This document shows positions 29,358 to 61,881 of a stretch of DNA of 64,000 bases, one piece after another; the stretch's first letter is position 1; each line of letters opens with the position of its first letter. Below the pieces are notes generated by a model that had not been told where the DNA came from, searched no databases, and saw nothing but the letters and a program-made list of their open reading frames with translations. A program made the translations under genes and the position numbers. Source of the DNA: a virus (taxonomy: Duplodnaviria; Caudoviricetes); the IMG/VR virus record IMGVR_UViG_3300021387_000189, positions 1 to 64,000 of that record; one strand, given 5' to 3'.

Positions 29358-32066
29358 TTAGTGCTTGAAGTCTTTCTTCCAACAATTGTTGCTCACAGCT
29401 AAGCAAAAAGCTTTGTTAGACTTCTTAGTCCTTAGCCTAGACAAGTAATCCCAAAGCGGAACTTCTTGTGTCTCATAGTGAGGCTTCTCATCTTTTATCC
29501 AATGTCCAGCATTGTCTACATGCCATCCTAATGTCTTTACTTTTATGTTGACTTGATCTTTCTTGTGTCTCATGAAAGACTTCATCAGGTCCAGAATCAA
29601 TATTGCATTTGTCTTAGTCAGAGCAATGCAGTCATTCTCATCTCTATCAACTTTAGTAGAGAATATCTTGTCTAAGTCTGCAACAGCTAGAGGGCCAAAG
29701 TCTTTAGGATTGTATCCACTCTTCTGAGAAGCTTTGCCATACTCTATATGGTCTATCCATCTGTATGGAGCGCCTCCAACTCTTCCAAACACTATTCTTA
29801 TCACAAAGAAATTGTCATCTCCACAATGCCAGCCTTCACCAGCCATAGTGTAGATCTCAGCAGAACTGTATAGCTTGATAGGCCAATATTCTTTAATATA
29901 TCCAGTCACATTGCAAACTGGATCAACAGTCCAGTTGCCATCTTCTTTTTGAGAGTACAGCTTGTAACTATTGAAAACAAATTGGCCTTCACTTGAATCT
30001 CTAGGCATTGGCTCTAGTGCTTCATATCTTCCTTTAGGCAACATGCCAATTTTCTTTGCTTCTCTCAACAACACACTCAAGAAGTCTTTAGAGCCATCTA
30101 TTTCCTCGTCAATTGTCTCATCTAAGTCTCTCACTGAGTTAGGAGTCGCTTCAGACTTGAACTTGCTTGACACTTTCTTGTTGAGACCTAAGTTTGCTGA
30201 TTCTTGCAAGTTGAACTTGTAAGGCATCAGGTCCTGTTGTTCTTCTAGAGGCTTAGAGTCATCATATGAAGCACAGAAAGTGACAACATTCAAGATCCTG
30301 TCTGGTGTTGCCAACCACCCAAAATACCAAAGGCTTTCATCTTTAGGGCCTATCACCATCTCAGGAGTAGCTTTTGTTGCAGAGTTCAATGTCATCACTA
30401 CAGATGTTCCTCTGTCATACAAGTTCAGTTGCCAGATTGCAGGCATATGGTCTTTCACTTTGAAGTCTGTCTCTCCAAGTCCAATTGCAAACACTACAGA
30501 TCGCTCTTCATTTGATGATGTGTCAGAGGTCTCCATCATGTCAAGTATGTCATAAGACTTCTTCTCATATGCCATGAACACATCTTTTACTTCTTTGTAT
30601 CCATTAGCATTCAAGAAGGTCTTGAGACACTCCATGACAGAGTCTATAGAAGACATGTCATAAAGAGCATCAGCTTTGTTCTTGTTTCTCTCTTTGTCTT
30701 TGCTAATGACTCTCTTTCCTAGTCCTAAAGAAGTGACTGACTCATTCAATTCACTGAAAATGTCTTTTATAGTAAGATAATCATATTCTTCAACTTTTCT
30801 AGATACAAATTCTAAGAAATCAACAATCTCTTCATGCCCAGCTCTTATTACAGACACTACAAAATCTGAATAGTCATCTATGATATTATTGATGAAGTTG
30901 TCTTTAGCTTTTAGTGTCCCATGCAGGAAATTGGCCATCAATATAGAGCCTCTAAGAACTTCTAAATGTTTTGATGTGATGTTTAGAATAGTTCCATACT
31001 CTCCAAGACAAAGCCATAGCTCATTCTTTCCTCTCACAAACACTCCACTTCCTTGGTCTTTGCCAGTGGATTGCATATGCTTGAAGATGAGGTCATTCGT
31101 AGACTTCATAGAGTCAATCAAGTCTGCATAGTGAGCTCTTGAATAGCAGCAAATCAGATTCTTGACAACTTTCTTGTAATTTGCATAAGAAATCTCTTCT
31201 ATTGCGTCTCTCTTTTCATATTTCTTCTGTACTCTGCCTGCTAGTCCAATGCTTGACAATGTCTCATTGACCTTTGGATAGTTGTCAAGATGTCTGATTT
31301 CTTCCACTTTCCTGATAGCTGCACTAGCCACCATCCTAAGAGACAAGAACAGATTAGACACACTAAGCCTGTAGCAGTATCCTATTGGGTTTCCAGAAAT
31401 TCTAAAGTAGTCTATAGAGTCTTTGCTATTCACTATCAAGTGCTCTTGAGATGACAGTGCTTTGATCTCATCTTCACTATACATCTCTTCCATAAGAGCA
31501 AGCTGACCAGCATAGTCTCCACCAAATATTCTTGAAGACATAGATCTCACTAATGTGTAGAAGAACCACTCACACTCGTTCTTCTCTAAGAAGTAAGGAA
31601 TATTGACATCTGCTTGTTCTTTGTGTTCAGTGTTAGGATACTTAAACCTTTCTGAATGTTTGTTGATTGCTTTCTGTAAAGCATCTTTGCTGAGAACTAA
31701 CACTGTGGCATACAGTTTGTCATTGTTCTTAGATGCTGTTGTCAGATTCCACTCAGGACATGTGAAAGCTATTCTTCTAGCAATAAAAGGTCCTTTCCAG
31801 TCATTGCTAGTCACTTTCCATCTTTTTGACTTGTCTATTGTCTTGAGAAGTCTCTTGATTTCTGTCTCACATTGTGAATCATCTATGAGGTCTAAGTCTT
31901 CAGTTCTGTTTCCTGCAGCTTTTTCTTCATATCGTTTAGATATTTTCTTAGAAAGACCAATCTTATATAGCTTGTATTCCTTGTCAAAGTCCATCAGAAT
32001 CAATAAATAAGCCAAATATTTGGGATTTTCCATATTTATCGAAGGACATGAATCTGAGATCCTCAT
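29358..32066 (-). CDS. modular protein with four (L/I)GL-x-K/R motif-delimited domains, putative internal head polyprotein
   Basis: KIGLSKKISKRY, VNETLSSIGLAGRVQKKY, LNESVTSLGLGKRV, LQESANLGLNKKVSSKF; true start probably at 32033 or slightly downstream. Confidence 0.65.
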   Translation of the reverse strand: MRISDSCPSINMENPKYLAYLLILMDFDKEYKLYKIGLSKKISKRYEEKAAGNRTEDLDLIDDSQCETEIKRLLKTIDKSKRWKVTSNDWKGPFIARRIAFTCPEWNLTTASKNNDKLYATVLVLSKDALQKAINKHSERFKYPNTEHKEQADVNIPYFLEKNECEWFFYTLVRSMSSRIFGGDYAGQLALMEEMYSEDEIKALSSQEHLIVNSKDSIDYFRISGNPIGYCYRLSVSNLFLSLRMVASAAIRKVEEIRHLDNYPKVNETLSSIGLAGRVQKKYEKRDAIEEISYANYKKVVKNLICCYSRAHYADLIDSMKSTNDLIFKHMQSTGKDQGSGVFVRGKNELWLCLGEYGTILNITSKHLEVLRGSILMANFLHGTLKAKDNFINNIIDDYSDFVVSVIRAGHEEIVDFLEFVSRKVEEYDYLTIKDIFSELNESVTSLGLGKRVISKDKERNKNKADALYDMSSIDSVMECLKTFLNANGYKEVKDVFMAYEKKSYDILDMMETSDTSSNEERSVVFAIGLGETDFKVKDHMPAIWQLNLYDRGTSVVMTLNSATKATPEMVIGPKDESLWYFGWLATPDRILNVVTFCASYDDSKPLEEQQDLMPYKFNLQESANLGLNKKVSSKFKSEATPNSVRDLDETIDEEIDGSKDFLSVLLREAKKIGMLPKGRYEALEPMPRDSSEGQFVFNSYKLYSQKEDGNWTVDPVCNVTGYIKEYWPIKLYSSAEIYTMAGEGWHCGDDNFFVIRIVFGRVGGAPYRWIDHIEYGKASQKSGYNPKDFGPLAVADLDKIFSTKVDRDENDCIALTKTNAILILDLMKSFMRHKKDQVNIKVKTLGWHVDNAGHWIKDEKPHYETQEVPLWDYLSRLRTKKSNKAFCLAVSNNCWKKDFKH

Positions 32067-32611
32067 ACAAGAACAGGAACAAGCCAGACTTGAGAGAGAA
32101 TGCTAAGTGGCAGCAAGGATACTTCTATCCAACTAACAAGGAGAAGTGCTTGTCACAAGTGAACATTTTCAGGTCAAGCTGGGAAGAGCACTTCATGAAG
32201 TGGTGTGACAGGAATCCAAACATAGTCCAGTGGGCTAGTGAGCCTATAGCTGTCAAGTACAGGAACCCGGTCTCTAACTTAGAGTATTGCAAGAAGAACA
32301 ACCTTGATCCTAGAGATCCAAGAAATTGGAAAGTATCTAACTACTACACTGACTTCTGGATTTCTATCAAAGGCAGGGATGGAAGTGTGAAGAAAGTGTT
32401 CATAGAGATCAAGCCTTACTCTCAGACACTTGCTCCTGAACCTATTGCTCCAAGTGCCCCTCTTAAAGAGCAGAAGGCGTACTGCAGAGCTGCTCAGACA
32501 TTCTTGATGAACAAAGCCAAGTGGGAAGCCGCAAAGAAATACTTCAATGAGCGAGGAGCGGAGTTCAGTGTGTTCACTGAGCGTACTCTAGAGAAGCTAG
32601 GATGTCTCTGA
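32048..32611 (+). CDS. head completion protein, T4 gp4-like (TnsA-type endonuclease fold)
   Basis: RSSWE..FMKWCD.NPNI..WASE, YYTDF, IEIKP..QT, NKAKWEAA. Confidence 0.9.
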   Translation: MNLRSSYKNRNKPDLRENAKWQQGYFYPTNKEKCLSQVNIFRSSWEEHFMKWCDRNPNIVQWASEPIAVKYRNPVSNLEYCKKNNLDPRDPRNWKVSNYYTDFWISIKGRDGSVKKVFIEIKPYSQTLAPEPIAPSAPLKEQKAYCRAAQTFLMNKAKWEAAKKYFNERGAEFSVFTERTLEKLGCL

Positions 32612-32690
32612 AATCTACCCAAAATTTGACTCTTGAGATCTCATAATAAATATATCACAAAAGCAATTATATCTAGATACAAATAATCGC

Positions 32691-33167
32691 ATGAAGTCAT
32701 TCAAAGAAGTCTATAATGCTAGCAAGATGCAAATGCTTGAAGCAAAGAAAACACAGATAGACAATGAGAAGGTCGCACTCTTAGAGGGTATAAAGACCGA
32801 GTTGTGCATCACTTGCAAACTCAAGGAATTGCCAAAGCAGCGACAGGATCAGGTGCTCAACATGCTGTATGAGTTCTGGTCTCCAAAGAAAGGCATCAAC
32901 AAAGCAGGAAAGGCATTCTTAGAAGAAGGCAGGATTGCTATTGACACTAAGTCTTCTGTAGCTAACATAAAGCTGTTTGCACAGAAGGAGGTCAAAGACA
33001 ACATCAATGAGTTTGCTAGGGCTTTTGTAAACAACAGAGGCAAGGAAATAGTACAACGCCTGCAAGAGAACATCCAGCACAGGTGCCAGAAGAAGATCAT
33101 GTTCAAGCCTTTGTTTGAGATGGTGTTCAAGATTGTGTCTGACAAGATTCAGAACGACAACCTGTAG
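32691..33167 (+). CDS. hypothetical basic protein
   Basis: 158-aa ORF after an ATAAATAT motif; MKSFKEV...MLEA start resembles T4-like head proteins. Confidence 0.65.
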   Translation: MKSFKEVYNASKMQMLEAKKTQIDNEKVALLEGIKTELCITCKLKELPKQRQDQVLNMLYEFWSPKKGINKAGKAFLEEGRIAIDTKSSVANIKLFAQKEVKDNINEFARAFVNNRGKEIVQRLQENIQHRCQKKIMFKPLFEMVFKIVSDKIQNDNL

Positions 33168-33222
33168 TCAAAGAGACCGAAACTTCTTTTCCTTCATTCG
33201 AGTCCTTCGATAAATTCTTGGC

Positions 33223-33248
33223 AAGCTGTCAGATGACTCTGACAGCTT
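33223..33248. terminator. bidirectional terminator between convergent genes
   Basis: AAGCTGTCAGA-TGAC-TCTGACAGCTT. Confidence 0.75.
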
Positions 33249-33307
33249 CTTTGTTGTAATATCTGAAATCTTTCCTAGGGACGTTTGTTTCTTAGCTCTG
33301 ATAAGAA

Positions 33308-36300
33308 TTAGACCATTCGCTGCAGCATGCCTCTCAGCTCACCTCTAGTAGCATCTGTGACAACAAACCTGATCTCTTCACCAAAGTATGTTGGTGGAGG
33401 TGTTTGCTGAGCAGACACATTCACATTGTTGGTTGATGGCTGAGCAGGCTGAGCAGGCTGTGGGTTTGGATTTTCTTCTGTCTTGATGATGTTAGCATCT
33501 ATCAGCATTTGCATCTGCTGTTGCTGCATCTCCATGAATATTTTGCCAAGCTGCTCTACTTTGTCCATAGAAGACTCATTGACTGCTTTCAATCCACTTG
33601 ATATGACTTGCAGCTTCTTGCCAATAGTGTCAAGGTGAGTAGTGAGGTCTTTGAGCATCCTGTTCCTCTCACCTTCATTCTTCTTGAGCTTCTTCTCTAT
33701 CTTGTCAACTGTGTCTTCAAAGTCCTTCCCAAACTTCTTGACGGTCTTTATGCTTGCTTTGATACCAGTGTCAAGCTTAGTCAAGTCAGCAAGAAGCTTA
33801 GCAAGAGTGTTCTCAAAGTTAGAAGTGCCATTGTACAGAGCTTGGTTGATCTCACCTGTAGCTTGTCTGAATATCTCATCTAAGTTCTTTATCTCTCCAG
33901 AAGAAGTCACTACTTGCTTTGTCATTCCTTCAATTGAAGAGATCTTGTTAGCAAACTCTTCTATTGGAAGAGACTTAGTCATCCTGACTTCTAAGAGCTC
34001 AAGCTTAGTCTGCAGCAGATCTATCCCAATATATGAAGATGTAGGTCCAAGACTGTTCAAAGCAGTGACAAGTGCTGCAAGAGCCATGTAGCCTTGAGCA
34101 GAAGCTTTTGTTATTATCCTTGTCACTTTGTGCACTCTGTCTGCTAAGTCTCCATAGTCTTTAGTGTACTGGTCAATAGTACTCTTGTACTTAGCTGCTG
34201 CATCTGGCAATGTAGCAGACATCAGTGTAGCAAGGTTGCTCAAGAACTCTTTCTCTTGCTGGCCAGCTTTAGTCATGTCAAGACTTCCAAAGTTGTTGAT
34301 GACTTTAGCAGCAGCAAGTATGATAGCAGCATTTGTCTTCAACCTAGAGAGTTCTTTCTTCTTCTCATCAGTTGCAAAGGATGTAATTTCTGATGATGAG
34401 AAGCTACTAGCAAAGTACACTATAGCACTAGACACTTTGAGCGTGATTGAGTCATAGTCTGTCTTGACATCAAACTCTTTCATCATCTTGCCCCATTCCC
34501 CAACAGGCTTAGCAACACCAAGTATGCTCTTCAAAGCTTTGACTACTCCTGGGACATCTTTCTCTATAGACACTAAGCCATCTCTGAGAGTAGTCACGAA
34601 CTTTGTGATTGATGTTGCAAGTGTTCCTGCAATGACAGGATATAGATCTTCGGTCTTGACAAGCTCACCATTCTTCCTCATGAAGATTGGCTTTCCATTC
34701 TTGTCATATCCTTCAATGACAAACAAGTTGTCAGATATGACTTTAGAGAAATTGCTAAGTCCAACCATCAAGTCTTTCAACCCACCTTTGCTCAAGTGCA
34801 TCAGTACTTCTTCAGCTTCAGGAGCTATTCCATTCAAGCCATCTCTCAAGCCAACTATAAATGTAGTCAATGATGACACTAGAGTGCTAGCAGCATCACC
34901 ATACATCTCTTTAGAGACTGTCTTGTAGATTGGCTTCCCATTCTTGTCATAGCTGTCAACATATCTTCCAGTAGCAAGCTTCAGTATAGAGTCAACAAAT
35001 GATGACACTCCTTTCATGAGAGGCTTCATCACTTTAGAGATGCTCTCCATTGTCTCAACTTGTTCTGGCTGGAGCTGAGCCATGCTCTCCCCAAGCACTC
35101 TCAAGAACACATTGAACCAAATCACTACACTCTTTGCAGCAGCACTGAAGTCATCAGGACTCACTTGTTTTGTCACTTTGAATGAGTCTTCAATTCCAAC
35201 AGAAACTGTGCCTGTAGTGAGCACCATCACAGCATCAACAAACTTAGAGACTGAGTCCATGATTGGAACTATTGCTTCAGACAAGCTCTTTATAGCTTTC
35301 CTCTGTGTGTACTTCATTCCTTCTGTACCAGAAATCAGAGCTTCTAAGAATCTCAAGAAATTTCCAGTTATTGCATCTGCAGCCGCTATGAATCTAGGTT
35401 CTGAAACCACTTCAGTCCTTTGATTTCCTTCTTCATCTGTTGTGGTGTATGTACCAGTTGCCATAGCCATAATAGCATCAACGAACTTGCCAACTGAGTC
35501 CATGACAGGAGACAGAGACTTTGCAATAGAGTTGATAGATGCTTGTGCAGAGTAGCTCAAGCCATCAGCACCTTTGCCAAGTTCTGTTATAAACTTTCCG
35601 AACGCTTCACTTACAGCATTTGCAGCTTTAGTGAAATCTCCAGGCTCCACTCTCTTCTTAATTTCCTCTCCATCATCTCCAGTCATTGTGTATGTTCCAG
35701 TAATGAGCTTCATGATAGCATCTACAAATGTGCCTACAGATTGCATGATAGGACCTATTGAAGTAGACAAGTAAGAGATTGTCATAGCCACAAGACCACC
35801 AGTGATGAATTTCCCTCCCCAGCTTCCGCTTCCTCCAAGCTTCCTGAATCCTGCAGCAAGTCCTTCAATGAACATCTGGAATCCGCCAGCTACAGTTGCA
35901 GCAGCTAACCCAAATACCCCTGGGTCAACTCTCTCATATATAGGCTTGCCTTTCTCATCATAGCCCGATATGAACTTCATAGTTGCTACCTGCTCTACTA
36001 TGTCTACAAACTCTCCAATTGTCCATATGAGTCCTAGCAATGGACCTGTGAATATGCCCATCACTATAGCCAGCAATGCTCCAGCAGGAGCCCAGCCTTT
36101 GACTAAGCTTGCCAGGAATCCACTGAATGCCCCACCAATCTCTCCACCTGCACTCTCAAGGTTGCCATACTCATCTTTGAGCTTCTTCCACCTTGAGACA
36201 GTTGTGATGAATAAGTTAATGACTCCCATGAGTCCTGCTAAGATAATTTCTAGTGCGGCCATCCCACCTAGTATTGCAGCCCCAAAACCAGATGTCACTA

Positions 36301-47653: not shown

Positions 47654-48376
47654 ATGAATATGAAAATCAAAGACTTAGTGAATATCACAGGCATAGAGCA
47701 AAGGAGTATTGAGAGAGTTGCATTCTTCTTGCTTGGCATGCTGTTTGCTGTTGCTTCTTCTACTTACACTATGTGGCTAGGAGAGAAGTATAACTTAGTA
47801 GAGCACAAGATTGAGTACACTAACGTCATCAGCTATGTTCCTGCTAATTCTATCAGCAAGAGTGTCAAGACGCTCTCAGGAGCAAAAAGAAGTGTCTCAG
47901 ACAAAGGGATAATGTTCATCAAGCAGAATGAAGGGATGCTCCGGCAAGCTGTATGGGACGTGAATGGTATCTCTGTAGGATGGGGTCACAAGATCAACTC
48001 TAGTGATCCTAAGTGGCTCAGAGACTTCAAGATTGGTCAATGGATAAGTGCCTCATCAGCTAATGAGCTGCTTGCTAATGACATAGAGAATTTCTTGAAT
48101 CCTAGCCTGAGATATGCTCTTAGAGACTTAGAGTCTAGTGGTGTTGACACTAAGAAGCTTTCTCAAGGCTTTGTAGATGGCATGGCCGACATGATATACA
48201 ACTGTGGTCTCAATGGCATGATGACTACAGACTTCTACTATACACTGAAGAAAGGACATATAGACAAAGCGATAAGCTTAGTCCCTTCTACTAGAGTGTA
48301 CTGTGATGGTCACAAGTCCAGAAGAGAGAAGACCTACCGGATGATGGTTGAGGCTCAAGCTTCTGCAGAGTCATAG
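47654..48376 (+). CDS. GH24 lysozyme with N-terminal membrane anchor (SAR-like endolysin candidate)
   Basis: TM segment, then FIKQNEG...WDVNGISVGWGH, DMIYNCG, GHKSRREK. Confidence 0.75.
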   Translation: MNMKIKDLVNITGIEQRSIERVAFFLLGMLFAVASSTYTMWLGEKYNLVEHKIEYTNVISYVPANSISKSVKTLSGAKRSVSDKGIMFIKQNEGMLRQAVWDVNGISVGWGHKINSSDPKWLRDFKIGQWISASSANELLANDIENFLNPSLRYALRDLESSGVDTKKLSQGFVDGMADMIYNCGLNGMMTTDFYYTLKKGHIDKAISLVPSTRVYCDGHKSRREKTYRMMVEAQASAES

Positions 48377-49557
48377 TCAAACTGGTCTTCACACAGCTCC
48401 TCAACAGGCCTGACTCTCAAGTCAGGCATATGCTTCTTGATGACAGCTATCAATCTGTCAACAGCATTGTCATATTCTTGCAAGATTTGATTGACTGTAG
48501 AAGTCTTTGATGTCTTTTCTATTTTATATGGATCAAAGGCTTCCATGAACTCATCTGGATAGTTTTTCATATAGAGAGCTAGGTTGCAAAGAGCAAACAT
48601 AGTACTATATGTCACATGTACTGAGTCAAATATTTCAACAGCGATTTTTTTGCTATCACCAAGATGCGCTCTATATGCTGGCTCATATGTCATAATAACA
48701 AAATCCAACAGCATTCTTGATGTTGAGCCATCTTCATCTGAAGGAATGATTTCTATTTCTAAGAACACACTGTATGAGTTGTTTTCATCTAGAATATCAG
48801 TATTAGCCCAATTGGTATACTTAGTGTAGCAGAATATTGGAAAATACCAAACCCAATGATTGTTAGGTCTAGTAGGAGAGACTTTCACCTTTCTTGCAAA
48901 GTACCTTTCATCAAAGACTCCGGGATCTTCATCAACATCAAACTCTTCTAAGTAATTCTCAGAAGCAAATGCTTTTAGAGCATTGTTAGCAGCTTCTACA
49001 GTCATGAGTGAGATGTCTCCAATCTTTGACTTCTCTCTCTTTGCAAACTCTCGACTTACTTTCTTAGAAAGGCCAAGAGAAGTCTTAGTCTCTACAAGCT
49101 GCAGCTTTGGCTTCTTGTGTTCATTCTTCTTCTGCTTGTATAGCCAGTCAATCAGCTTGTCTTTGACTGAAGAGAACTTGAAGTCATAAGGGACTAGCAA
49201 GACTGGCATCTTGCTTGACCCATTTGTCTTGTAGAATCCAAACAAGTAGTTCTCATCTCCAATTATGCTCCAGTCAAGCCCAATGGCTTTAGCAGCATTG
49301 CCTATGATAGTAGAAATCAAGTCTTTCAGCACATCATTCATCTGATCTCTGTCAAGACCTACTTGCTTAGTTATTTTCTTGAATGATGTGTCAAATGTAG
49401 AGTTGTACTTGAAGTTCTTCTCAAAGTCCCAATACTCTTTGAACTGCTTCAAGAAGTCGACTTTGTCATCCATAGTCTCTTTTGGGACTAAGTCTAGTTG
49501 GCTGTTCTGTGAAGTAGCCTCTGACAGAGGCTTGTCAAAGTCGAATCTGTCTCTCAT
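48355..49557 (-). CDS. hypothetical protein carrying the LxE..LGLSKKV motif
   Basis: LSEA near the N-terminus; LVETKTSLGLSKKVSREF; AATAAATAA upstream. Confidence 0.7.
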   Translation of the reverse strand: MRDRFDFDKPLSEATSQNSQLDLVPKETMDDKVDFLKQFKEYWDFEKNFKYNSTFDTSFKKITKQVGLDRDQMNDVLKDLISTIIGNAAKAIGLDWSIIGDENYLFGFYKTNGSSKMPVLLVPYDFKFSSVKDKLIDWLYKQKKNEHKKPKLQLVETKTSLGLSKKVSREFAKREKSKIGDISLMTVEAANNALKAFASENYLEEFDVDEDPGVFDERYFARKVKVSPTRPNNHWVWYFPIFCYTKYTNWANTDILDENNSYSVFLEIEIIPSDEDGSTSRMLLDFVIMTYEPAYRAHLGDSKKIAVEIFDSVHVTYSTMFALCNLALYMKNYPDEFMEAFDPYKIEKTSKTSTVNQILQEYDNAVDRLIAVIKKHMPDLRVRPVEELCEDQFDYDSAEA

Positions 49558-52427: not shown

Positions 52428-52433
52428 CATATT

Positions 52434-52510
52434 TGTTAAATAATGTTAAATCCTGTCACTTTCTTGTGACAGGATTTCTTTATTTCAAATATTTGTGGTA
52501 TTTTTGCAGA
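52434..52510 (+). promoter_or_regulatory. hairpin plus Bacteroidota-type early promoter
   Basis: TGTTAAAT twice; AAATCCTGTCAC/GTGACAGGATTT; TATTTTTGCAG at 52499. Confidence 0.7.
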
Positions 52511-52522
52511 AAATTCAAAGTT

Positions 52523-52873: not shown

Positions 52874-52887
52874 CAATTGCTAAAGCT

Positions 52888-53223: not shown

Positions 53224-53237
53224 TTTAAATAAGCTAT

Positions 53238-53843: not shown

Positions 53844-54342
53844 GATAAGAGAGCTTGTAGCTAAAGACCCAGTGTGGGTAGTGATTCCCCTCTTAACTGA
53901 TAAGATGTTCTCTTCGAATGTAATTGTCATGTATCCTAGAATAGTCAGGCTTGAAGTAGTGTCTTCTGGTCAAGAGACAGTGAAGACTACTTTTCCTAAA
54001 TCAAATGGCCTTAGCTTTGAGTTTCCAACTAAGTACACACTGAATGCAAGAAGAGACCCTGAAGGAAGAGTTGCCACTGCTTCTACAACATATGAGTTCT
54101 ATGATGATGTGTGGCCTGGTGAGCCAAGAGACCTGCAGTTGCTGTGCTATGCTAGCAGGAAAGAAGCAAAGATGGAGTTCAGGAAAGAATGTGACTTGGC
54201 CGTCAAGATATTGAAAAATGACATGTTCTCAATGAAGAAGAGAATATCTGCTATCAAGAAAGAAATAAAGACAATCAAAGTGTTGAGGGAGAATGCATCA
54301 GCAGCAATAAACAAAGAAACAAGAGAAGAGCTAAGAAAGTAG
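53827..54342 (+). CDS. hypothetical protein
   Basis: 171-aa ORF with C-terminal coiled coil. Confidence 0.7.
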   Translation: MKTKTKIRELVAKDPVWVVIPLLTDKMFSSNVIVMYPRIVRLEVVSSGQETVKTTFPKSNGLSFEFPTKYTLNARRDPEGRVATASTTYEFYDDVWPGEPRDLQLLCYASRKEAKMEFRKECDLAVKILKNDMFSMKKRISAIKKEIKTIKVLRENASAAINKETREELRK

Positions 54343-54400
54343 TACAAACAAATAGGAAATATCAGTATATAAGCATTATTAACTTCTAAACATTAAAGAA

Positions 54401-54985
54401 ATGAACAAGACACTAGCAATCACAATTGGTGTGATCTTAGTCATAGCACTATGGCTCACATCTAGCTACAATGGATTTGTCAACAAGCAAGAGCTTGCAA
54501 ATGAAGCCTTTGCAAATGTACAAGCAACTTACCAGCGTCGTGCAGATCTTATTCCTAACTTAGTAGAGGTAGTGAGAGGATATGCAAAGCATGAGTCACA
54601 GACTCTTGAGAATGTCATTGCAGCTCGTGCAAAAGCTACTCAAATCACTATTGACCCATCAAACATCTCTCCTGATCAGCTTGCATCCTTCCAGAAAGCA
54701 CAAGGAGAGCTCAGCCAGGCGCTTGGCAAGCTGCTAGCAGTAGCAGAGTCATACCCAGACTTGAAGGCATCAAAGAACTTCAGTGACTTGCAAGTACAGC
54801 TAGAAGGCACAGAGAATCGCATCAATGAAGCACGACAGAAGTACAACAAAGCAGTGAAAGAGTATAACTCTAGTATTCGAAAGTTCCCTGGAGCATTCAT
54901 ATCAAGCATGTATGGATTTGAGAAGATGGACATGTTTGAGGCTTCAGAATCCGCCAAGGATGCTCCAAAAGTGAGCTTTGACTAA
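54401..54985 (+). CDS. lemA: LemA family protein
   Basis: N-terminal TM, YN..V, QRRADLIPNLV, AESYPDLKAS.NF, LEGTENRI. Confidence 0.95.
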   Translation: MNKTLAITIGVILVIALWLTSSYNGFVNKQELANEAFANVQATYQRRADLIPNLVEVVRGYAKHESQTLENVIAARAKATQITIDPSNISPDQLASFQKAQGELSQALGKLLAVAESYPDLKASKNFSDLQVQLEGTENRINEARQKYNKAVKEYNSSIRKFPGAFISSMYGFEKMDMFEASESAKDAPKVSFD

Positions 54986-55006
54986 TCTATCAGCTTTTTG
55001 TGAGAA

Positions 55007-55606
55007 ATGCTCCCAGACGTCAATAATAATATCCCAGAGATGAAGCTGTATTGCTACTCTATTGATGGCTTTGCACATGTCATGAAGCAACTTGGCTATA
55101 GTCGTGATGATGAGAAGCTCTTGGAGAGAGACAATATAGCTGTCATCTCGATCTGTTGTACTGACACTAACCCAGAAGAGTACAAAGGACTGTTTGCTGA
55201 AGAGCATTACTTCCATAACAAGTCAGGCTCATCAAACGTATTGAACATTGAGTTTGACGATCTTGATCCAGCTACTTGGATTGGTCCAGAGTTTGATCCA
55301 GAAGAAGCTTCAGACAGAGACTTCTACTATGCTCCTGACACTCCTAATCCTCCAAGAGCTCTAGACTGGGAGCTCTCTGCAAAGATAGTGAAGTTCATAG
55401 TTAACAACTTAGGGAAAGACTTCTATGTCCATTGCTCTGCAGGAGTCTCTAGGAGTCAAGCGATAGTAAGATTCATCCTAGATGCTTTCTCTTGGCCTGG
55501 AAACGGTAGATATAACTACAAGACTAGGCCTGAGAATCCACCAGAGTTGCCAAACCAGCATGTCTTGAGGATGTTGAAGAGAACTTACTTGAAATGCATT
55601 CAATAA
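55007..55606 (+). CDS. dual-specificity / protein-tyrosine phosphatase-like protein
   Basis: VHCSAGVSRS (CX5R), FDD, PN..V. Confidence 0.85.
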   Translation: MLPDVNNNIPEMKLYCYSIDGFAHVMKQLGYSRDDEKLLERDNIAVISICCTDTNPEEYKGLFAEEHYFHNKSGSSNVLNIEFDDLDPATWIGPEFDPEEASDRDFYYAPDTPNPPRALDWELSAKIVKFIVNNLGKDFYVHCSAGVSRSQAIVRFILDAFSWPGNGRYNYKTRPENPPELPNQHVLRMLKRTYLKCIQ

Positions 55607-55619
55607 TATAACAAAGCCA

Positions 55620-55961
55620 ATGAGAGATATCATCATAACATTGCCATCAAGCATAGAGTGGAGTGACTATGAGAAAGAGCTTGATGCTGTTGCAGACTGG
55701 AAGCAAGTGATGAACTTCAAAGTTCCATTCTTGCCGAAGCAAGACATAGGCCGATGCTATGTTGTGTATAGAGGACAGCTGATAGGATGGATGCAATGTG
55801 TAGGAGCTGTGAGTAAAGGATCTTTCACCTGCTCTACTACTGGACAGCCATGGGAAGGTAACTTCATACAGCGTAGTGGTCCATTCCACTATCTTGACAA
55901 CCCAATGCCATTCAAAGGATTCCAAGGATGGAGATACTATGACGCAGATTACAGAGACTAA
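55620..55961 (+). CDS. hypothetical protein, possibly ASCH/PUA-like
   Basis: RCYVVYRG.LIG...PFKGFQGWRY resembles the ASCH C-terminus. Confidence 0.55.
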   Translation: MRDIIITLPSSIEWSDYEKELDAVADWKQVMNFKVPFLPKQDIGRCYVVYRGQLIGWMQCVGAVSKGSFTCSTTGQPWEGNFIQRSGPFHYLDNPMPFKGFQGWRYYDADYRD

Positions 55962-56009
55962 TCAACGTGTCAGACTATTGAAGTAGTCTAAGCTAACTAA
56001 GAACACCAA

Positions 56010-56753
56010 ATGAAGAAACTTGTATTAGTATTTTTACTTTGCATTCTCTCAATACCTTCTGCAGCAGGTATCAAAGACTGGTTCAAGGGTCCTGAAGAGT
56101 GGAATGCAGACAACATAGTGATGGTTCACTTGCAAGACTCTACTAAGTGGACTTGCAATCCTGACAAAGTCATCAAAGATGAGACATGTGACTCTATAGA
56201 CTTCTGGTGCTCTAAGTTGAAGAGAGACAAAGGAGTAGAGAGTGTCATCGTCATTGTCAAGAAAGTTGAGAATGAAGACTGTTTCAGAGTGGCTCAAGAC
56301 ATAGGCAACAAGTATGGTGTAGGAGACAAAGAGACAAGAAGAGGTCTTGTCATTGTGGTAGCATACAACCAGCACAAGTACTTCATTGCTACAGGTCAAG
56401 GCTTAGAGCAAGACTTGACTGATGCATCTTGCAATGAGATAGCAGAAAACTTCTTGAAGCCTGCTATGAAGAATGAGAATCCGGACAAAGCAATGCTCAA
56501 CACAGTCAAAGCTATATACAACTATCTAGACTATGGGGTTGCAGAGCTTTACAAAGGCCAGCAAGAGCATGACCGAATGGTGCTTGTTATAGTAATAGTG
56601 GTCATAGTGGTCATAATCATAATCTTAGCTATAATGACTAGGGGAGAGATTTTCTTCATATTCTTTGATGGGTCTAGCAGTGGAGGTGGATTCAGTGGAG
56701 GAAGCTTTGGAGGTGGCTCATTTGGAGGTGGCGGAGCAGGAGGCAGTTGGTAG
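56010..56753 (+). CDS. TPM domain protein (YgcG-like)
   Basis: Signal peptide, YGVGDK...RGLVI, IATGQGLE..LTD, TM helix, GGGSFGGGGAGGSW tail. Confidence 0.92.
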   Translation: MKKLVLVFLLCILSIPSAAGIKDWFKGPEEWNADNIVMVHLQDSTKWTCNPDKVIKDETCDSIDFWCSKLKRDKGVESVIVIVKKVENEDCFRVAQDIGNKYGVGDKETRRGLVIVVAYNQHKYFIATGQGLEQDLTDASCNEIAENFLKPAMKNENPDKAMLNTVKAIYNYLDYGVAELYKGQQEHDRMVLVIVIVVIVVIIIILAIMTRGEIFFIFFDGSSSGGGFSGGSFGGGSFGGGGAGGSW

Positions 56754-56775
56754 CATATTAAATGAAAATACAAAT

Positions 56776-57054
56776 ATGGAAATAATAGAAAATCAAGAAA
56801 GCTTAGCCTCTCATGCAGAGAAAGAGTTCAAAGAACTTAAAAAAGAGATAGATCTGACGAGAATCTACAAAGATGTTAACGGCAACTACTTGTTCATGAT
56901 TGAAGTCTTTCATACAGACGAATCATCTTTCGCTAAGTTTATCATGGTTGATCAATATGGCACTGTGGAGATTTATAATGACTATCAGGTCAAGCCTGCA
57001 GACATAAACCCAATACCTCAATTCTTGAGTCTTCTTAGAAAAAAAGGTATATAA
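56776..57054 (+). CDS. hypothetical protein
   Basis: 92-aa ORF from the internal ATG. Confidence 0.6.
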   Translation: MEIIENQESLASHAEKEFKELKKEIDLTRIYKDVNGNYLFMIEVFHTDESSFAKFIMVDQYGTVEIYNDYQVKPADINPIPQFLSLLRKKGI

Positions 57055-57137
57055 AATAGGCCTTTGTTGCTTTCTTATATCACACATTAACAATAAATAT
57101 AGTGGAGTCAGACACTCCACTTTTTGTGTTTACTACA

Positions 57138-57704
57138 ATGGATGATAGAGAGGACACTACGATGAGTCAGACACAAGATCTAGACATTGTCAACAAGGTC
57201 CCAGACGATGTGAAGTCTATGATGGCCTCTACATTTGTCAAGAGCTTCAACTCTATGCCTGCATGGCTGAGATGGGGCACTATCATTGCGGTCATAGTAG
57301 GAGTCTTCTATTTCACGGTGGCTCAAAAGTATATCACACAATATAGAGAAGACAATCAGATAGAAGTCATGCAACAGACTGTCTCTAAGTTGTCTGACAA
57401 AGTGCTTATTCTTGAAGAAGACCACCAAGATGCAATAACTTTGTATGAGAACATAGAAGAAGTCAGAGGAATACTTGCAGCATTTGAGACTGTAGAGAGG
57501 AGGAGATCTTCTAACTTGATCAAGTTCATAAAGAGGACCCACAGCAATGAATATGCATCAGCAATAGCAGACTTTGAAGACACTGACATAGACATACACA
57601 AAGAATATCAGGCTAAGATAGAAGAATTGTTCAATGCCAAGCTAAAGAAAAGAATGGAAGAACGAAGAAGAGCATTCAAAGAGAATAAAGATGACTCAAG
57701 CTAA
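57138..57704 (+). CDS. single-TM coiled-coil membrane protein
   Basis: One TM segment then heptads; AATAAATAT upstream. Confidence 0.65.
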   Translation: MDDREDTTMSQTQDLDIVNKVPDDVKSMMASTFVKSFNSMPAWLRWGTIIAVIVGVFYFTVAQKYITQYREDNQIEVMQQTVSKLSDKVLILEEDHQDAITLYENIEEVRGILAAFETVERRRSSNLIKFIKRTHSNEYASAIADFEDTDIDIHKEYQAKIEELFNAKLKKRMEERRRAFKENKDDSS

Positions 57705-57763
57705 ATAAGCGTTAATTTATATAAAAAACTCCAAACATTACAAAAGAGTGTCATAGAATCTGC

Positions 57764-57955
57764 ATGACACTCTTTTTTAGCATATTATTGATAATATATC
57801 TGATAGTTGGTGGCATAGTAGTCAGCCATGTGTTCAAGAAGCACATAGAAGAAGCAGAGAAAGAAGGAAATGCTGCAGGCAATATCTGTAATGCTATGCT
57901 TTTGCTTATCTTCATATGGCCTTTCTCATGGAAGATAGCTAAGCATGTCAAATAG
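57764..57955 (+). CDS. small two-TM membrane protein
   Basis: Hydrophobic ends, IFIWPF motif. Confidence 0.6.
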   Translation: MTLFFSILLIIYLIVGGIVVSHVFKKHIEEAEKEGNAAGNICNAMLLLIFIWPFSWKIAKHVK

Positions 57956-58015
57956 TAAGTATCAGAGCAATACAGAGCTATTGATAAATATGACAAACAC
58001 AACATTGTGTCTGTC

Positions 58016-58768
58016 ATGTATGTCATAGATAAGATTAAAGAGGTTCCAAAGATAGTATGGATAGTGATACTTGTTGCTTCTATAGTTCTTGGAATTGCAA
58101 TATGGAGAGACCTTTCATCTTCTAGATATGAGCCAGTTGTAATCAATCAGAAGACAGAGTACTATGAGAACAAGAAAGGAGAACTCTACAAAGCAAGTCT
58201 TGCTGCTATTCTTGAAGTCAAAGACTTGAAGAAGCAGTATGACGATTTGTATGATGAGTATCAGAAGCTCAAGAAAGACAAGCCTCTTGTCATCACTCAT
58301 ACAGTCACAGAGACAAAACTAGACAGTGTGCTGCTGCCAACAACGTTGTCAGCAGACAAGAGAACTATGTCATGGGAGTGGCATAAAGACATTTCAGAGA
58401 ACAACTTCATACACTTAGAAGGGCAGACAAAGATAGACTCTTTGATGGAGAGTGCTACTACTCTGATGAAGACTTTGAGAGTTGGCTCTGACCTTTATGT
58501 TGACTTCATCTCAAACCCTGACTACCCTAGCACTTTGCAAGTTGTAGCAAGATCAAACAACCCATATGTCAGCATACTAGACACTAGAGGCACAGTAGTA
58601 GATCCGCTTTCACATCCTGCATTCAAGAGCATATTGAAGAAGAATGAGAAGAAGTGGGTCATTGGTGTGCAAGCTGGCTATGGCGTAAGCTATGATGTCT
58701 CTAGGAAGACTGTTGGGACAGGACCTTACATAGGAATAGGAATAACAAAGAGAATCATTGCTTTTTAA
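58016..58768 (+). CDS. membrane-anchored protein, possible spanin-like lysis factor
   Basis: N-terminal TM, coiled coil, C-terminal KKWVIGVQAGYG...GPYIGIGI...F amphipathic beta strands. Confidence 0.55.
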   Translation: MYVIDKIKEVPKIVWIVILVASIVLGIAIWRDLSSSRYEPVVINQKTEYYENKKGELYKASLAAILEVKDLKKQYDDLYDEYQKLKKDKPLVITHTVTETKLDSVLLPTTLSADKRTMSWEWHKDISENNFIHLEGQTKIDSLMESATTLMKTLRVGSDLYVDFISNPDYPSTLQVVARSNNPYVSILDTRGTVVDPLSHPAFKSILKKNEKKWVIGVQAGYGVSYDVSRKTVGTGPYIGIGITKRIIAF

Positions 58769-61069
58769 ATGAGAGTAGTAAAAGACAGAGACATCCAAAA
58801 GCTTGGATTGAGCAATAAGGTAAAGAGACAATACAAAGATCGAGAGATTATAAAAAACAATGTCCTCTTTAGTTTCTTTAACATATATGATTGCTACAAG
58901 TATATCAAAGACAATATACCTGGATTTGCAGACTTGTTCTATTCTGAGAAATACGACTTTAACATATCAAGATCTATTAAGATTATACAGATAGTGTGTA
59001 GAGCAAACGCAAACATAAGCGTAGGAATAGTTCAAGACCCATGTGAAGAAAATGATAGACTCTACATATGCTCCGGCAACAATGAGAGACAGATGTTCAA
59101 TTACATGTCTAAGCATTGTCCAGAGTCAGTCATAGAAATAGAAAATACAGGTATGATGTCTGCTGCTAAATACTACTATGGAAATACTGACGATGATTGT
59201 CATAGCATGTCAAGTACTCTGCTAGATGTGACCATAAGCTATCTCAAGAAAGTTTCTTCTAGAAAATATCCAGAGTATCTACGGGTACCAGAGTCTAGGT
59301 TTAGTGGAGTACTAGAGTCGGCTAAGAAAGAGACAAAGCTGATTAAAGAGACTTGCAACCAGAAAGTGAATGCGCTAGAGTGGTTGAACGCCTTGAAGGA
59401 AAGCTCTGCTCTTGGCCTGTCAAAGAATATTAAGAAGAAGTTTGACAAAGTTGATGCAGTAGATAATGTGTTTGAGATCCAATTTGAAGATCCAGAAGTA
59501 GAACGCATATGTCATGATCATGATGTGTATACAATAGGAGATGCTATAAAAGTGTCTAGTATAAAAGAATGGTTCTCTAATAATGATAAGATAAAGTCAT
59601 TCAATGAGCTGAAATACTTTAAAAGTCTCAGTGTCATAGAAGATTATGCTTTTTCTTTTTGTAGCTCTCTTCAGACAGTCACTATCCCTAATAGTGTTGT
59701 CAGCATAGGATACAGAGCTTTTGAACAATGCAAGTCTCTTCAATCAGTTATTATCCCTAATAGTGTCACTAGCATAGGACCTGCATCTTTTTTTGTGTGT
59801 GGGTCTCTTCAATCTGTCATTATACCAAATAGTGTCACTAGCATAAAAGAAGGTACTTTTTGGGGTTGTGGTACTCTTCAGTCAGTCACTATCCCAAATA
59901 GTGTCACTAGCATAGAAAGAAGTGTTTTTAGCCTATGTAAGGCTCTTCAGACGGTTGTTATCCCGAATAGGGTCACTGGCATAGAAAAATATACTTTTTA
60001 TAAGTGTGAGTCTCTTCAATCAGTCACTATCCCAAATATGGTCACTATCATTGGAGATAATGCATTTCTTGAATGCAAGTCACTTAAGACTATAGTCATA
60101 CCGGACAGTGTCATTAGCATAGGAGATAATGCATTTTCAAATTGTGATGATCTTAAAAAAGTGTACATGTCGTCAAGTTGCAAAGCATTTGACAGAATTA
60201 TGTCTGAAATTAGAAAAAACTCTAAAGATACCATCATCATTGATCCTAACACCCAAAAACTCTTGAAAAAAGCCGAATTAGTTGAGAGTGTTGTTAGAGA
60301 GAACAAAGAGCCAAATATCACTAACTCTCAAGGGCAGGATGTCCCTGAGCTTGGCAAGCACGCAGAGAATGTCTACTTGCCTGATTGCCCATTCATGATA
60401 GGCAAAGATCAAGTAGATTGGTTTGAGTATTTCCAAAGAGAGAAAGAGAAGCACACAATCAAAGATGTTGATGACTTTGTGCAGTCAGCTAAGAAAGAGA
60501 CAAAGCTGATTGAAGAGTCTTGCAACCAGAAAGTGAATGCACTAGAGTGGTTTGTTGCTTTGAAGGAAAGCTCTGCTCTTGGACTATCAAAGAAAGTCAA
60601 TAAGACTTATAATCTAACACATGACAAGAATATAACTCTCAAGCAGCTCTGTGACTTGGTCAGAGCAAAAATCTATACAGCAGTTGGGTATCCTCCAGAC
60701 AAAAACGTGAAAGAAGTCCCTGCCATGCTCAGGCTGTACGATTATGGCTCCAGCTTGATTGTAGCTGACATGAGAGTAGACAAAGAATACGAATTCAATT
60801 GTGCTAAAGAGAGATTCAATGAGAGGATAGAGATTGAACAGAGAAGGCTTGATGGATATATGGCTGACCTAGCCAAGAAAACAAAAAGGAAGGAAGCCAC
60901 AGACTTACTGTTGGAGTGTATATCAAACACTAAGGCTTACATAGCTGGGCTGATTGCAGGAAGAGATATAATAGAGTCGCTTGGTTGGTATGTTTTCATG
61001 AATGCTATGCAGAATACAGAAGCTGAGATAGCTAGAGCTAAAGAATCTAAGAAAGGACAAAGCTTATGA
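58769..61069 (+). CDS. modular protein with BspA-type leucine-rich repeats and three LGL-motif linkers
   Basis: About 8 x 23-aa C.SLQSV.IPNSVTSI...AF repeats; IQKLGLSNKV and LKESSALGLSK twice. Confidence 0.85.
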   Translation: MRVVKDRDIQKLGLSNKVKRQYKDREIIKNNVLFSFFNIYDCYKYIKDNIPGFADLFYSEKYDFNISRSIKIIQIVCRANANISVGIVQDPCEENDRLYICSGNNERQMFNYMSKHCPESVIEIENTGMMSAAKYYYGNTDDDCHSMSSTLLDVTISYLKKVSSRKYPEYLRVPESRFSGVLESAKKETKLIKETCNQKVNALEWLNALKESSALGLSKNIKKKFDKVDAVDNVFEIQFEDPEVERICHDHDVYTIGDAIKVSSIKEWFSNNDKIKSFNELKYFKSLSVIEDYAFSFCSSLQTVTIPNSVVSIGYRAFEQCKSLQSVIIPNSVTSIGPASFFVCGSLQSVIIPNSVTSIKEGTFWGCGTLQSVTIPNSVTSIERSVFSLCKALQTVVIPNRVTGIEKYTFYKCESLQSVTIPNMVTIIGDNAFLECKSLKTIVIPDSVISIGDNAFSNCDDLKKVYMSSSCKAFDRIMSEIRKNSKDTIIIDPNTQKLLKKAELVESVVRENKEPNITNSQGQDVPELGKHAENVYLPDCPFMIGKDQVDWFEYFQREKEKHTIKDVDDFVQSAKKETKLIEESCNQKVNALEWFVALKESSALGLSKKVNKTYNLTHDKNITLKQLCDLVRAKIYTAVGYPPDKNVKEVPAMLRLYDYGSSLIVADMRVDKEYEFNCAKERFNERIEIEQRRLDGYMADLAKKTKRKEATDLLLECISNTKAYIAGLIAGRDIIESLGWYVFMNAMQNTEAEIARAKESKKGQSL
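59316..60594 (+). repeat. ~110-bp direct repeat (59316-59427 and 60483-60594) encoding the linker
   Basis: AGTC.GCTAAGAAAGAGACAAAGCTGATT.AAGAG.CTTGCAACCAGAAAGTGAATGC.CTAGAGTGG...TTGAAGGAAAGCTCTGCTCTTGG. Confidence 0.85.
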
Positions 61070-61881
61070 AAGAGTCATGTGTAATCAAGAGAGTGAATGC
61101 TTTAGAGTGGTACATGGCCTTGCAAGAGAACTCAAGTCTTGGTCTTGGTGATAAAGTCAAGAGGAAGTTTGACAAAGTTGATGCAATAGACAATCTGACG
61201 CAGATCCAATTTGAAGATCCAGAAGTAGAGCGTATATGCCATAAACATGGTGTATATACAATAGGAGATGCTATAAAAGTGTCTAGTATAAAAGAATGGT
61301 TCAATAAAAATAGGAAGATTCAGGCGTTCAACGAATTCAAATACTTTACAGGATTGAAAGACATAAAAAAATCTACTTTTGAAGGATGCACTAATCTTCA
61401 ATCAGTCATTATCCCAAATGGTGTCACTAGCTTAAGAAATTTTGCTTTTATGTATTGTGCTTCTCTCAAATCAATCTCTATTCCAAATAGTGTCACTAGC
61501 ATAGAAAACTGGACTTTTAGTCATTGTGAGTCTCTTCAATCAATCCGTATCCCAGATAGTGTTAATAAGATAGGAGGTCGTGCTTTTAGTAGTTGTTTTA
61601 ATCTTCAATCAATCACTATTCCAAGTGGTGTCAGCACCATGGTCTCATCTATTTTTATGAATTGCACTTCTCTTCAATCAGTAGTTATCCCAGATAGTGT
61701 CGCCATCATAGGAGATAATATATTTTCAAATTGTAAATTACTCAAGGACATATACATCTCTAAGAACTGTCCTGTATATAATCAAATAAGAAAACAATAT
61801 CCAGATATTCAGCTTATAGAACCTAAAGTGAATGAGTCATCTAGCTTAGGTCTCAGCAGCAAAGTCAAGAAAAAACTATGA
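61066..61881 (+). CDS. BspA-type LRR protein, paralog of the upstream gene; N-terminal part of a frameshifted gene
   Basis: Shares FDKVDA.DN...IQFEDPEVERICH.H.VYTIGDAIKVSSIKEWF with the upstream gene; about 6 LRRs; ends VNESSSLGLSSKVKKK. Confidence 0.85.
   Translation: MKESCVIKRVNALEWYMALQENSSLGLGDKVKRKFDKVDAIDNLTQIQFEDPEVERICHKHGVYTIGDAIKVSSIKEWFNKNRKIQAFNEFKYFTGLKDIKKSTFEGCTNLQSVIIPNGVTSLRNFAFMYCASLKSISIPNSVTSIENWTFSHCESLQSIRIPDSVNKIGGRAFSSCFNLQSITIPSGVSTMVSSIFMNCTSLQSVVIPDSVAIIGDNIFSNCKLLKDIYISKNCPVYNQIRKQYPDIQLIEPKVNESSSLGLSSKVKKKL

Follow-up and report, generated by a model that had tools for sequence, protein, structure and literature searches.

Why should several otherwise dissimilar genes of one virus repeat the same short basic peptide, often directly behind a glutamate? 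The question is raised by the 64,000-nucleotide stretch analysed here (hereafter the window), which is the first 64 kb of the 94,697-bp IMG/VR virus record IMGVR_UViG_3300021387_000189 (CheckV completeness 38%). An earlier note on this DNA had listed ten copies of the peptide, hereafter the LGL tag, in the products of four genes (P0001 to P0004), and had proposed that a prohead protease cuts after the Glu ahead of the internal copies and thereby releases separate domains. Our analysis indicates that the tagged genes probably encode head-internal cargo polyproteins, which would be cut at the joints between modules by the prohead protease into single modules that keep the tag. That the chains are cut and encapsidated, what the tag does and whether modules are ejected into the host are all inferred from the sequences compared below.

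All ten copies were found where they had been placed, in the four open reading frames (ORFs) of P0001 to P0004 (Table 1). The core pattern [LI]G[LI]x(1-2)[KRN][VI]x(1-2)[KR] was run on all six frames of the 94,697-bp record, and it returned these ten and an eleventh copy at genome position 74649 (minus strand), in an ORF at 73990-74703 that encodes 237 amino acids (aa; P0005). No further match was obtained elsewhere in the record in any other frame. Synonymous codons vary among the copies (CTT, TTA, TTG, CTG or CTA for Leu, or ATT for Ile; GGT, GGA or GGC for Gly), except in the pair at 59411 and 60578, which lies within a recent DNA duplication. Because the codons differ between copies, selection acts on the peptide.

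The tag belongs to a large family. A profile built from the eleven copies found 36 proteins out of a collection of 5.8 billion clusters, and an exhaustive HMMER search against 1.84 billion protein cluster representatives gave 66 tagged proteins at E ≤1e-3, most of them with 2-11 matched stretches. This profile scan of the genome and its relatives, which the earlier note had proposed, recovered all 11 copies in the phage's own genome and, after iteration, about 300 copies in 87 proteins, with a maximum of eleven tags in one protein of 1,843 aa. The first 38 proteins, split at their tags, gave 130 tagged modules (median length 176 aa), and the 145 pieces fell into 49 BLAST clusters (23 Fib_succ_major-like, 19 BspA leucine-rich repeat (LRR), others unknown). 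The motif does lie at domain boundaries, as had been claimed, and the modules that it joins are mostly without mutual relationship, so the view of otherwise unrelated partner proteins also held. The only Pfam families detected in scans of 60 tagged proteins were LRR families, Fib_succ_major/Lcl_C, ankyrin and FNIP; enzyme, toxin and peptidase domains were not found. The LRR modules of P0003 and P0004 matched LRR_5 (PF13306) at E values of 6.4e-62 and 7.2e-62, respectively, both above the gathering score; membership of the BspA-type LRR family covers one module type and not the whole system.

The anatomy of the joints is highly regular. All 83 non-redundant internal tags are preceded by Glu, which stands 2-7 residues before LGL in 82 of them and 9 residues before it in one (V-N-E). 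Among the 82 joints, P3 is V/I/L in 75 (91%) and Ala in just 2, P2 is Asn in 41, and P1′ is S/T/N in 72 (88%). The distance from Glu to LGL is 2 residues in 30 joints, 3 in 35 and 4 in 15; because this gap varies, the Glu site and the LGL peptide would seem to be two separate elements rather than one block. The tag consensus comprises LGL, then [NSGA]-x-[KRH]-[VIA]-[QK]-K-K-[FYH] and an acidic stretch x-D-x-D-A-[VI]-[DE]-N; in a stricter form it reads LGL-[NS]-K-[KHR]-[VIA]-[QK]-K-K-[FYH]-x-D-x-D-A-V-D-N. At the single joint of P0002, the orthologs P0034 and P0036-38 are identical or almost identical. T4 gp21 cuts after L/I-x-E (PMC9026906), and SPN3US gp245 cuts after A-x-E, prefers Ser at P1′ and processes itself (PMC10052503). 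The predicted site rule of the joints matches that of T4 gp21.

Copies at natural N-termini had been described as lacking the site. This is true of P0001 and P0003, but the leaders of P0004 and P0005 (18-24 aa) bear one. Across the family, leaders of ≤6 residues have no real site, FDFD-type leaders of 11-14 residues mostly miss it, and most leaders of ≤14 aa are without it, whereas a hydrophobic-x-E site stands just ahead of the tag in 29 of the 33 leaders of ≥16 aa. Three of the four siteless long leaders have an internal Met that would yield a short MDFDK leader. The recurrent leader classes with a terminal site are …ALEW(Y/F)xN(V/I)xE (14, including P0004 and P0005), …(D/N)LYE (7) and some of the FDFD type. 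This dependence on leader length fits a tag that needs a position near a free N-terminus.

A second N-terminal element, (F/I)DFD(K/S/N/H), stands ahead of the first tag in many polyproteins of two tag lineages, namely the LGL lineage (P0001, P0002, P0006, P0015, P0023, P0169, P0178, P0181 and P0183) and the polyprotein of a relative described below (G001). It could be a once-per-chain targeting signal. A similar FDFDS also directly follows some tags.

Several lines of evidence place the record in its phage. In its UvsX-like recombinase it shares 52.5% identity with the Prevotella phages Lak-A1 and Lak-A2 and 64% with a 207,794-bp IMG/VR contig (G001). The ORFs of the phage are open with the standard code; Lak-A1 requires TAG to be read as Gln. 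Proteins identical to those of the window are recorded on a 410,259-bp contig. Because of these identities, the standard code and the identical proteins, the record is identified as a fragment of a gut or rumen megaphage that is related to, yet distinct from, the Lak phages. A crassvirus identity, suggested partly by a 2,973-aa ORF, was abandoned in view of UvsX and the S77 proteases. No match came from megablast of the region against GenBank phages, from tblastn of P0015 or from single-protein scans of IMG/VR with P0001 and with P0002, and a literature search found no paper that describes the LGL tag motif.

S77 proteases were found in Lak-A1, Lak-C1, G001 and G002. With the G001 protease as the query, further S77 proteases were found whose records come from contigs of the same size as those of tagged proteins: P0227 with P0016 and P0024 (438,546 bp), P0328 with P0018 and P0020 (36,105 bp), P0215 with P0021 (8,993 bp) and, for the phage under study, P0332 with the window's own proteins and P0334 (1,447 aa, 7 tags; 410,259 bp). 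P0332 (796 aa) matches PF03420 (Peptidase_S77) with 49.9 bits against a cut-off of 27, and the PHROG family 'head maturation protease' with an E value of 4e-40. The same phage is thus predicted to encode the S77 prohead protease P0332. A scan of the JGI collection found two fragments, L032 and L025, that are 100% identical to parts of P0332. On L032, the protease start is preceded, at a distance of 73 bp and on the same strand, by the end of a 5-tag polyprotein of at least 1,018 aa. On L025, a very acidic 305-aa ORF (P0335) comes after the protease, and beyond it, about 1 kb downstream of the protease gene, lies a convergent 7-tag polyprotein of at least 1,290 aa. Relatives whose proteases are 76-78% identical have the same arrangement of tagged genes. 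The earlier description of the tagged genes as unlinked must be qualified: other tagged genes of this phage adjoin the protease, so not all are unlinked from head assembly.

The joint site is also over-used in the protease itself. In P0332, [VILM]NE[STA] occurs 8 times against 0.21 expected, a count reached by 0 of 2,000 shuffles, and [VILM]xE[ST] occurs 15 times against 2.4 expected, whereas the control with Asp for Glu gave 0 against 1.4 expected; the other proteases of the clade are like P0332 in this over-use. Across 18 aligned proteases, L16-N17-E18, V168-x-E170 and N181-E182-S183 vary little or not at all, as are His75, Ser131/132 and His143, which we take to be the candidate catalytic residues of the S77 protease. 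The sites at about 170 and 182 stand directly after the catalytic domain, and self-processing there would free that domain. The small acidic ORF just downstream of the protease is enriched in sites in every lineage examined (in L028, 3 sites against 0.02 expected). In the phage under study this ORF is P0335, which has a central part of low complexity that is very acidic, an N-terminal L-T-E↓S site (the arrow marks the predicted cut) and a C-terminal basic peptide of about 20 residues between two [LM]-N-E↓S sites. It has no family match; its place and its composition make it a candidate for a scaffold or core protein. Within the 95-kb record, [VILM]xE[ST] is enriched only in P0001 (6 against 1.96 expected) and P0003 (8 against 1.93), with no enrichment in the tail, replication and giant ORFs.

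The C-terminal extension of P0332 also holds an extra module of about 145 aa (residues ~442-588) between I-N-E↓S and V-N-E↓S sites. The module is absent from the orthologs P0227 and P0215 (639 and 659 aa), and P0215 has a short Cys-rich insert instead. It looks like cargo borne by the protease itself, without an LGL tag.

Relatives of the phage carry variants of the tag. The LGL profile gave no match in Lak-A1, Lak-C1 and five IMG/VR relatives (control, own genome: 11 of 11 copies), an absence that concerns the LGL form only, as G001 has a diverged variant; a back-translated LGLNKxVQKKF pattern likewise had 0 matches across IMG/VR. The ORF directly upstream of the G001 protease contains four copies of [VIL]xE↓AFRAGN(R/Q)ARKKES, and the corresponding back-translated pattern found 41 copies of [MLVI]xE↓AF(R/K)AGNRARKKE in G001 against 0 for a reversed control, in arrays with a spacing of about 470-740 bp. 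One G001 ORF of 2,103 aa begins MGKIDFDKMNE↓AFKAGN… and has LRR_5 modules and ten tags 157-248 aa apart, with P3 always M/L/V/I. G001 is therefore like the phage under study in its [MLVI]xE site, in a tag composed of a hydrophobic or aromatic residue, Gly, Asn, a basic cluster and an acidic tail (NRARKK…DTVESV in G001, NKRAKK…DAVENI in the LGL tag), in having LRR among modules of this length, in its IDFDK leader and in an array directly upstream of the S77 protease. It differs in that its tag is too diverged for the LGL profile to detect. The architecture is, by this comparison, older than the LGL sequence, and the divergence of the tag suggests lineage-specific co-evolution with whatever reads it.

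Two further lineages have large ORFs beside their proteases with the tags E↓SFTKKTSK and E(S/G)F(G/S)QK(I/A)K, and two odd copies of the LGL lineage (…LQEGLSNKVKNKF and …LQEGFGNKVKKKF) are similar to the latter form. Within 10 kb on either side of the Lak-A1 protease there are no tagged arrays. Two Lak-A1 proteins encoded close to the protease begin with a common leader of about 20 residues ending in …(I/L)(M/L)E↓SLFD, followed by an acidic run, which may be a different common propeptide in Lak proper.

We propose the following mechanism. The polyproteins would be made late, from genes preceded by the box GATAAATAT, and would enter the prohead core. Inside the prohead, the S77 protease (P0332) would cut [V/I/L]-x-E↓[S/T/N] after each joint Glu, and the released modules of about 176 aa would keep the basic-then-acidic tag, 2-5 residues beyond the Glu, at their new N-terminus. 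The tag appears not to be needed for site recognition, because the protease's own sites are without it, and for this reason it probably serves another step. Most likely the retained tag is a shared handle, which would dock on the acidic protease extension or the scaffold during core assembly, bind the packaged DNA later, or do both. Docking on the core is plausible because of the charge pattern of the tag and the very acidic character of the protease extension and the scaffold candidate. The binding-domain nature of the modules and their fast turnover would fit an interaction with the host.

A wider reading is possible, though doubtful: a sub-clade of the Lak-related megaphages may use a portable code of cutting and keeping a handle, in which [V/I/L]-x-E and a basic tag would direct capsid loading, release by the protease and delivery with the DNA. 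The same code would then arm these phages with dozens of rapidly shuffled modules for binding to the host, among them LRR, lectin-like and ankyrin modules and many of unknown fold, and the tag sequence would co-evolve with its receptor, as LGLNKxVQKKF here, AFRAGNRARKK in G001 and other forms elsewhere.

Several points weigh against cargo polyproteins that are cut inside the head. The entire case for cleavage, virion residence and ejection is computational. No S77 match was found in the window's own 94,697-bp record, and the link to the protease rests on matching contig sizes and on 100%-identical fragments from another assembly rather than on a single continuous sequence. Those modules that can be recognised (LRR, lectin-like) are of kinds usual in surface adhesins and better fit an external location. 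The analogy with T4 is imperfect, because the targeting peptide conserved there precedes the cut and is lost, and the peptide conserved here follows it. Some 5-7 leaders of the FDFD type, 11-14 aa long, carry no site. Inside the modules, sites are not depleted ([VIL]xE, 236 against 218 expected; [VIL]xE[STN], 43 against 41), so this test of site avoidance is neutral and gives no sign of selection against stray sites. AlphaFold2 models of P0002 and P0001 had a mean predicted local distance difference test score of 37.1 and 38.0 with 5-sequence alignments, too poor to show whether the joints are exposed or how the modules fold. Taken as a whole, the interpretation of the earlier note is supported in part. 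For the cleavage and release that it proposed, the site rule, the S77 gene, the over-use of the site, the gene adjacency and the relative with a variant tag are several independent computational lines of support. Its phrase 'injected effectors' fared worst: the label is the weakest part, because the modules that can be recognised (BspA LRR, lectin-like Fib_succ_major/Lcl_C, ankyrin) are binding domains and no enzyme or toxin domain was found.

Other explanations share part of this evidence. The polyproteins might be processed and packaged and yet be structural, forming internal mass or a DNA organiser like the phiKZ inner body or a scaffold, with basic tags that mainly bind DNA or the core. 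Giant phages of the phiKZ type hold much protease-processed, fast-evolving internal protein (PMC9026906, PMC10052503), a capsid for at least 400 kb of DNA may require internal organisers, and both the strongly basic tag and the lack of an enzymatic or toxin domain in any tagged protein agree with such a role. We nevertheless consider it rather unlikely, as the extreme diversity of the modules (49 BLAST clusters in 145 pieces), the dominance of ligand-binding folds and the free shuffling between genes are more like an arms-race repertoire, and no significant PHROG match to the inner-body or ejection families of phiKZ or SPN3US was found. Less probable still are uncut adhesins of the virion surface or fibres, strung like beads, with the peptide as a structural linker or oligomerisation helix. 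BspA LRR and Fib_succ_major/Lcl_C are indeed typical surface-binding modules, P0001 heads a minus-strand block with tail-, sheath- and lysin-like matches, and the spacing of the hydrophobic residues of the tag could suit an amphipathic helix (a reading of the consensus, with no confident structure). Linkers, however, are not normally the best-conserved part of a protein, and no signal peptides are visible at the N-termini of the tagged proteins. This explanation also does not account for the invariant Glu with V/I/L at P3, the variable gap of 2-5 residues, the siteless short N-termini, the excess of sites in the protease and in the acidic ORF next to it, the single-module genes that keep leader and site, or the gene adjacency.

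It is very improbable that the repeat is mainly a DNA-level recombination junction for cassette shuffling, with a peptide that has no function. Modules of the same family do occur in different orders and in different genes, and a near-identical DNA repeat of about 110 bp brackets the P0003 LRR module on both sides; but the codons differ, and the peptide is kept over about 300 copies and in phages whose UvsX proteins share only about 64% identity. Selection therefore acts on the peptide, and the shuffling that does take place at the joints is better regarded as a consequence. We give equally little weight to cutting of the joints by another protease or in another place, such as the host cytoplasm, with the tag serving in degradation, localisation or mimicry of the host. 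Proteases other than those of proheads can also cleave after Glu, but no other peptidase family was found in or beside the tagged proteins, over-use of the site is specific to the S77 protease and the ORF beside it, and the gene of this protease has tagged genes on both sides.

For head-internal cargo polyproteins, the closest known system is the T4 capsid targeting sequence with gp21, which acts on IPI, IPII, IPIII and Alt (PMC9026906). Shared features are an S77-family protease, a cut (predicted here) after the Glu of hydrophobic-x-E, a short common peptide on cargo that is otherwise unrelated and evolves fast, short leaders at the N-terminus with the site at their end, and a site of the protease's own near its N-terminus (LIE-9 in T4, L16-N17-E18 here). 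In T4, however, each cargo is a separate small gene, whereas this phage has up to 11 modules per chain, and its cargo consists of binding domains. The T4 capsid targeting sequence is an N-terminal propeptide of 10-19 residues that is sufficient for loading and is removed; the LGL tag stands downstream of the site, would be retained and falls outside this definition. The predicted system differs from that of T4 in its polyprotein arrays, in a tag on the side of the cut that is kept, in tag variants specific to lineages and in cargo made of binding domains. The systems of phiKZ gp175, 201phi2-1 gp268 and SPN3US gp245 also have large capsids with many internal proteins cut at x-x-E by a diverged gp21 homolog (PMC10052503, PMC9026906), and their head proteolysis resembles the predicted one in long multi-cut propeptides, a preference for Ser at P1′ and self-processing of the protease. 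They differ in a small P3 residue (S/A/G or A, versus V/I/L here), and no repeated post-cleavage tag or module array has been described in their inner-body or ejection proteins. Polyvalent proteins (Iyer et al. 2017, PMC5512222) are likewise very large multi-module phage proteins with 2-15 domains, predicted to be packaged and injected, for which proteolytic release was proposed. Their domains are disparate and enzymatic, often with a metallopeptidase of their own, whereas the tagged proteins have no detected enzymatic or peptidase domain, uniform joints of site and tag, and a separate head-maturation protease; they fall outside that class. Effector polyproteins of the MARTX type need an internal cysteine protease and translocation repeats, and neither peptidase nor repeat-in-toxin families were found in the tagged proteins in any of the Pfam scans, so the resemblance is conceptual only.

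To our knowledge, almost nothing is known about how capsids are built and loaded in uncultured megaphages of 400-550 kb, or about the function of their giant ORFs. If the proposed processing is true, one short rule would explain a whole class of the largest megaphage genes, predict the specificity of the head protease as [V/I/L]-(N)-E↓S and provide a simple sequence test for capsid cargo. It would also carry the targeting principle of T4 beyond single small proteins, to arrays of modules in polyproteins that retain their tag, and the tag could serve to load foreign proteins into large capsids. For this phage there are at least 30 candidate modules, from 11 tags in the 95-kb record, 7 in P0334 and 12 in the two polyproteins that flank the protease.

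The features discussed are collected in Table 1.

Table 1. Tagged genes, joints, boxes and related features (window coordinates unless a contig or the genome is named; ↓, predicted cut)
Feature	Position	Strand	Remarks
P0001, four-module tagged polyprotein	29358..32066	-	longest ORF 902 aa; four tags
Tag 1 of P0001 (KIGLSKKISKRY)	31908..31997	-	near N-terminus, without xxE site
Joint and tag 2 of P0001	31197..31286	-	VNE↓TLSS-IGLAGRVQKKY
Joint and tag 3 of P0001	30675..30764	-	LNE↓SVTS-LGLGKRV
Joint and tag 4 of P0001	30138..30227	-	LQE↓SAN-LGLNKKVSSKF
P0002, two-module protein	48355..49557	-	N-terminus MRDRFDFDK; from translation
Joint and tag of P0002	49024..49113	-	LVE↓TKTS-LGLSKKVSREF
P0003	58769..61069	+	unknown module, BspA LRR module, unknown module; three tags
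Tag 1 of P0003 (QKLGLSNKVKRQY)	58772..58858	+	N-terminal, without site
Joint and tag 2 of P0003	59375..59467	+	LKE↓SSA-LGLSKNIKKKF
Joint and tag 3 of P0003	60542..60634	+	LKE↓SSA-LGLSKKVNKTY
P0004	61066..61881	+	leader (…VNALEWYMALQE↓), tag, BspA LRR module, joint, second tag, stop
Leader site and tag 1 of P0004	61102..61194	+	LQE↓NSS-LGLGDKVKRKF
Joint and tag 2 of P0004	61810..61878	+	VNE↓SSS-LGLSSKVKKK
Intact 149-codon module, +1 frame, continuing P0004	61874..62320	+	matches C-terminal module of the 412-aa homolog P0019
Exact GATAAATAT boxes	18291, 28992, 29008, 32032, 39011, 57983; genome 74729		
Promoter-like GATAAATAT box upstream of P0001 Met25	32032..32040	-	
GATAAATAT box upstream of ORF 58016-58768	57983..57991	+	first gene of the P0003/P0004 operon
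P0335, directly downstream of the phage's protease	L025:1328-2245	+	305 aa
Variant-tag copies of G001	22, 32-35, 46-49, 70-72, 81-87, 100-104, 180-192 kb; L044:1409-7720		
Further tag-form ORF	L030:12555-15041	-	
Further tag-form ORF	L033:12626-15796	-	
Further tag-form ORF	L033:7616-9937	+	
Lak-A1 shared-leader ORF	L043:4085-4810	-	L043 is Lak-A1 179,500-199,400
Lak-A1 shared-leader ORF	L043:13562-14971	-	

Exact GATAAATAT boxes occur 7 times in the record against 2.2 expected, and all stand 6-35 nt upstream of gene starts, which makes the box a candidate promoter element of one temporal class. The earlier note had placed the tagged genes behind late-promoter motifs or in operons that follow them. 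The boxes before Met25 of P0001, before the operon of P0003 and P0004 and before P0005 agree with this in part, but P0002 has no exact box. Other genes preceded by the box include a 1,898-aa ORF and two large ORFs of the structural block; the box shared with these ORFs is, like the adjacency to the protease gene, indirect evidence for a place of the tagged proteins in the head. The true start of P0001 is probably Met25 at 31994 (MDFDK..., 878 aa), and the Met1 of the longest ORF (extension 31994-32066) would be wrong, because the box falls between Met1 and Met25, the homologs begin with MDFDK and the 878-aa form is the called protein P0007.

The stop of P0004 results from a single additional A in the A6 run (61870-61875) within the KKK codons of its second tag. 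The truncated 271-aa form is recorded from 4 contigs, so an assembly error is unlikely, and the frame break could be a recent frameshift or slippage on the A-run.

Structural comparisons of tagged proteins were limited to low scores: in the ESM Atlas, P0005 and the C-terminal module of P0002 had no usable match (scores ≤0.75, template modelling score <0.5), and against PDB sequences the tag profile gave only a chance 14-residue match to the ribosomal protein eS8 (E ~9). Pfam Ubiquitin_3 (PF14836, model positions 5-33) repeatedly matched the tag and was judged a chance similarity of a short basic-then-acidic stretch.

In the surrounding genome, weak matches to tail, sheath, lysin and head-closure proteins come from the block on the minus strand that lies downstream of P0001 (~7.1-29.0 kb), and the replication genes occupy the far end of the 94,697-bp record. 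A lysozyme-like ORF without a tag (47654-48376, plus strand) overlaps the 3′ end of P0002 on the opposite strand; it matches the PHROG endolysin family with an E value of 2e-13 and 'internal virion lysozyme motif' with an E value of 2e-5.

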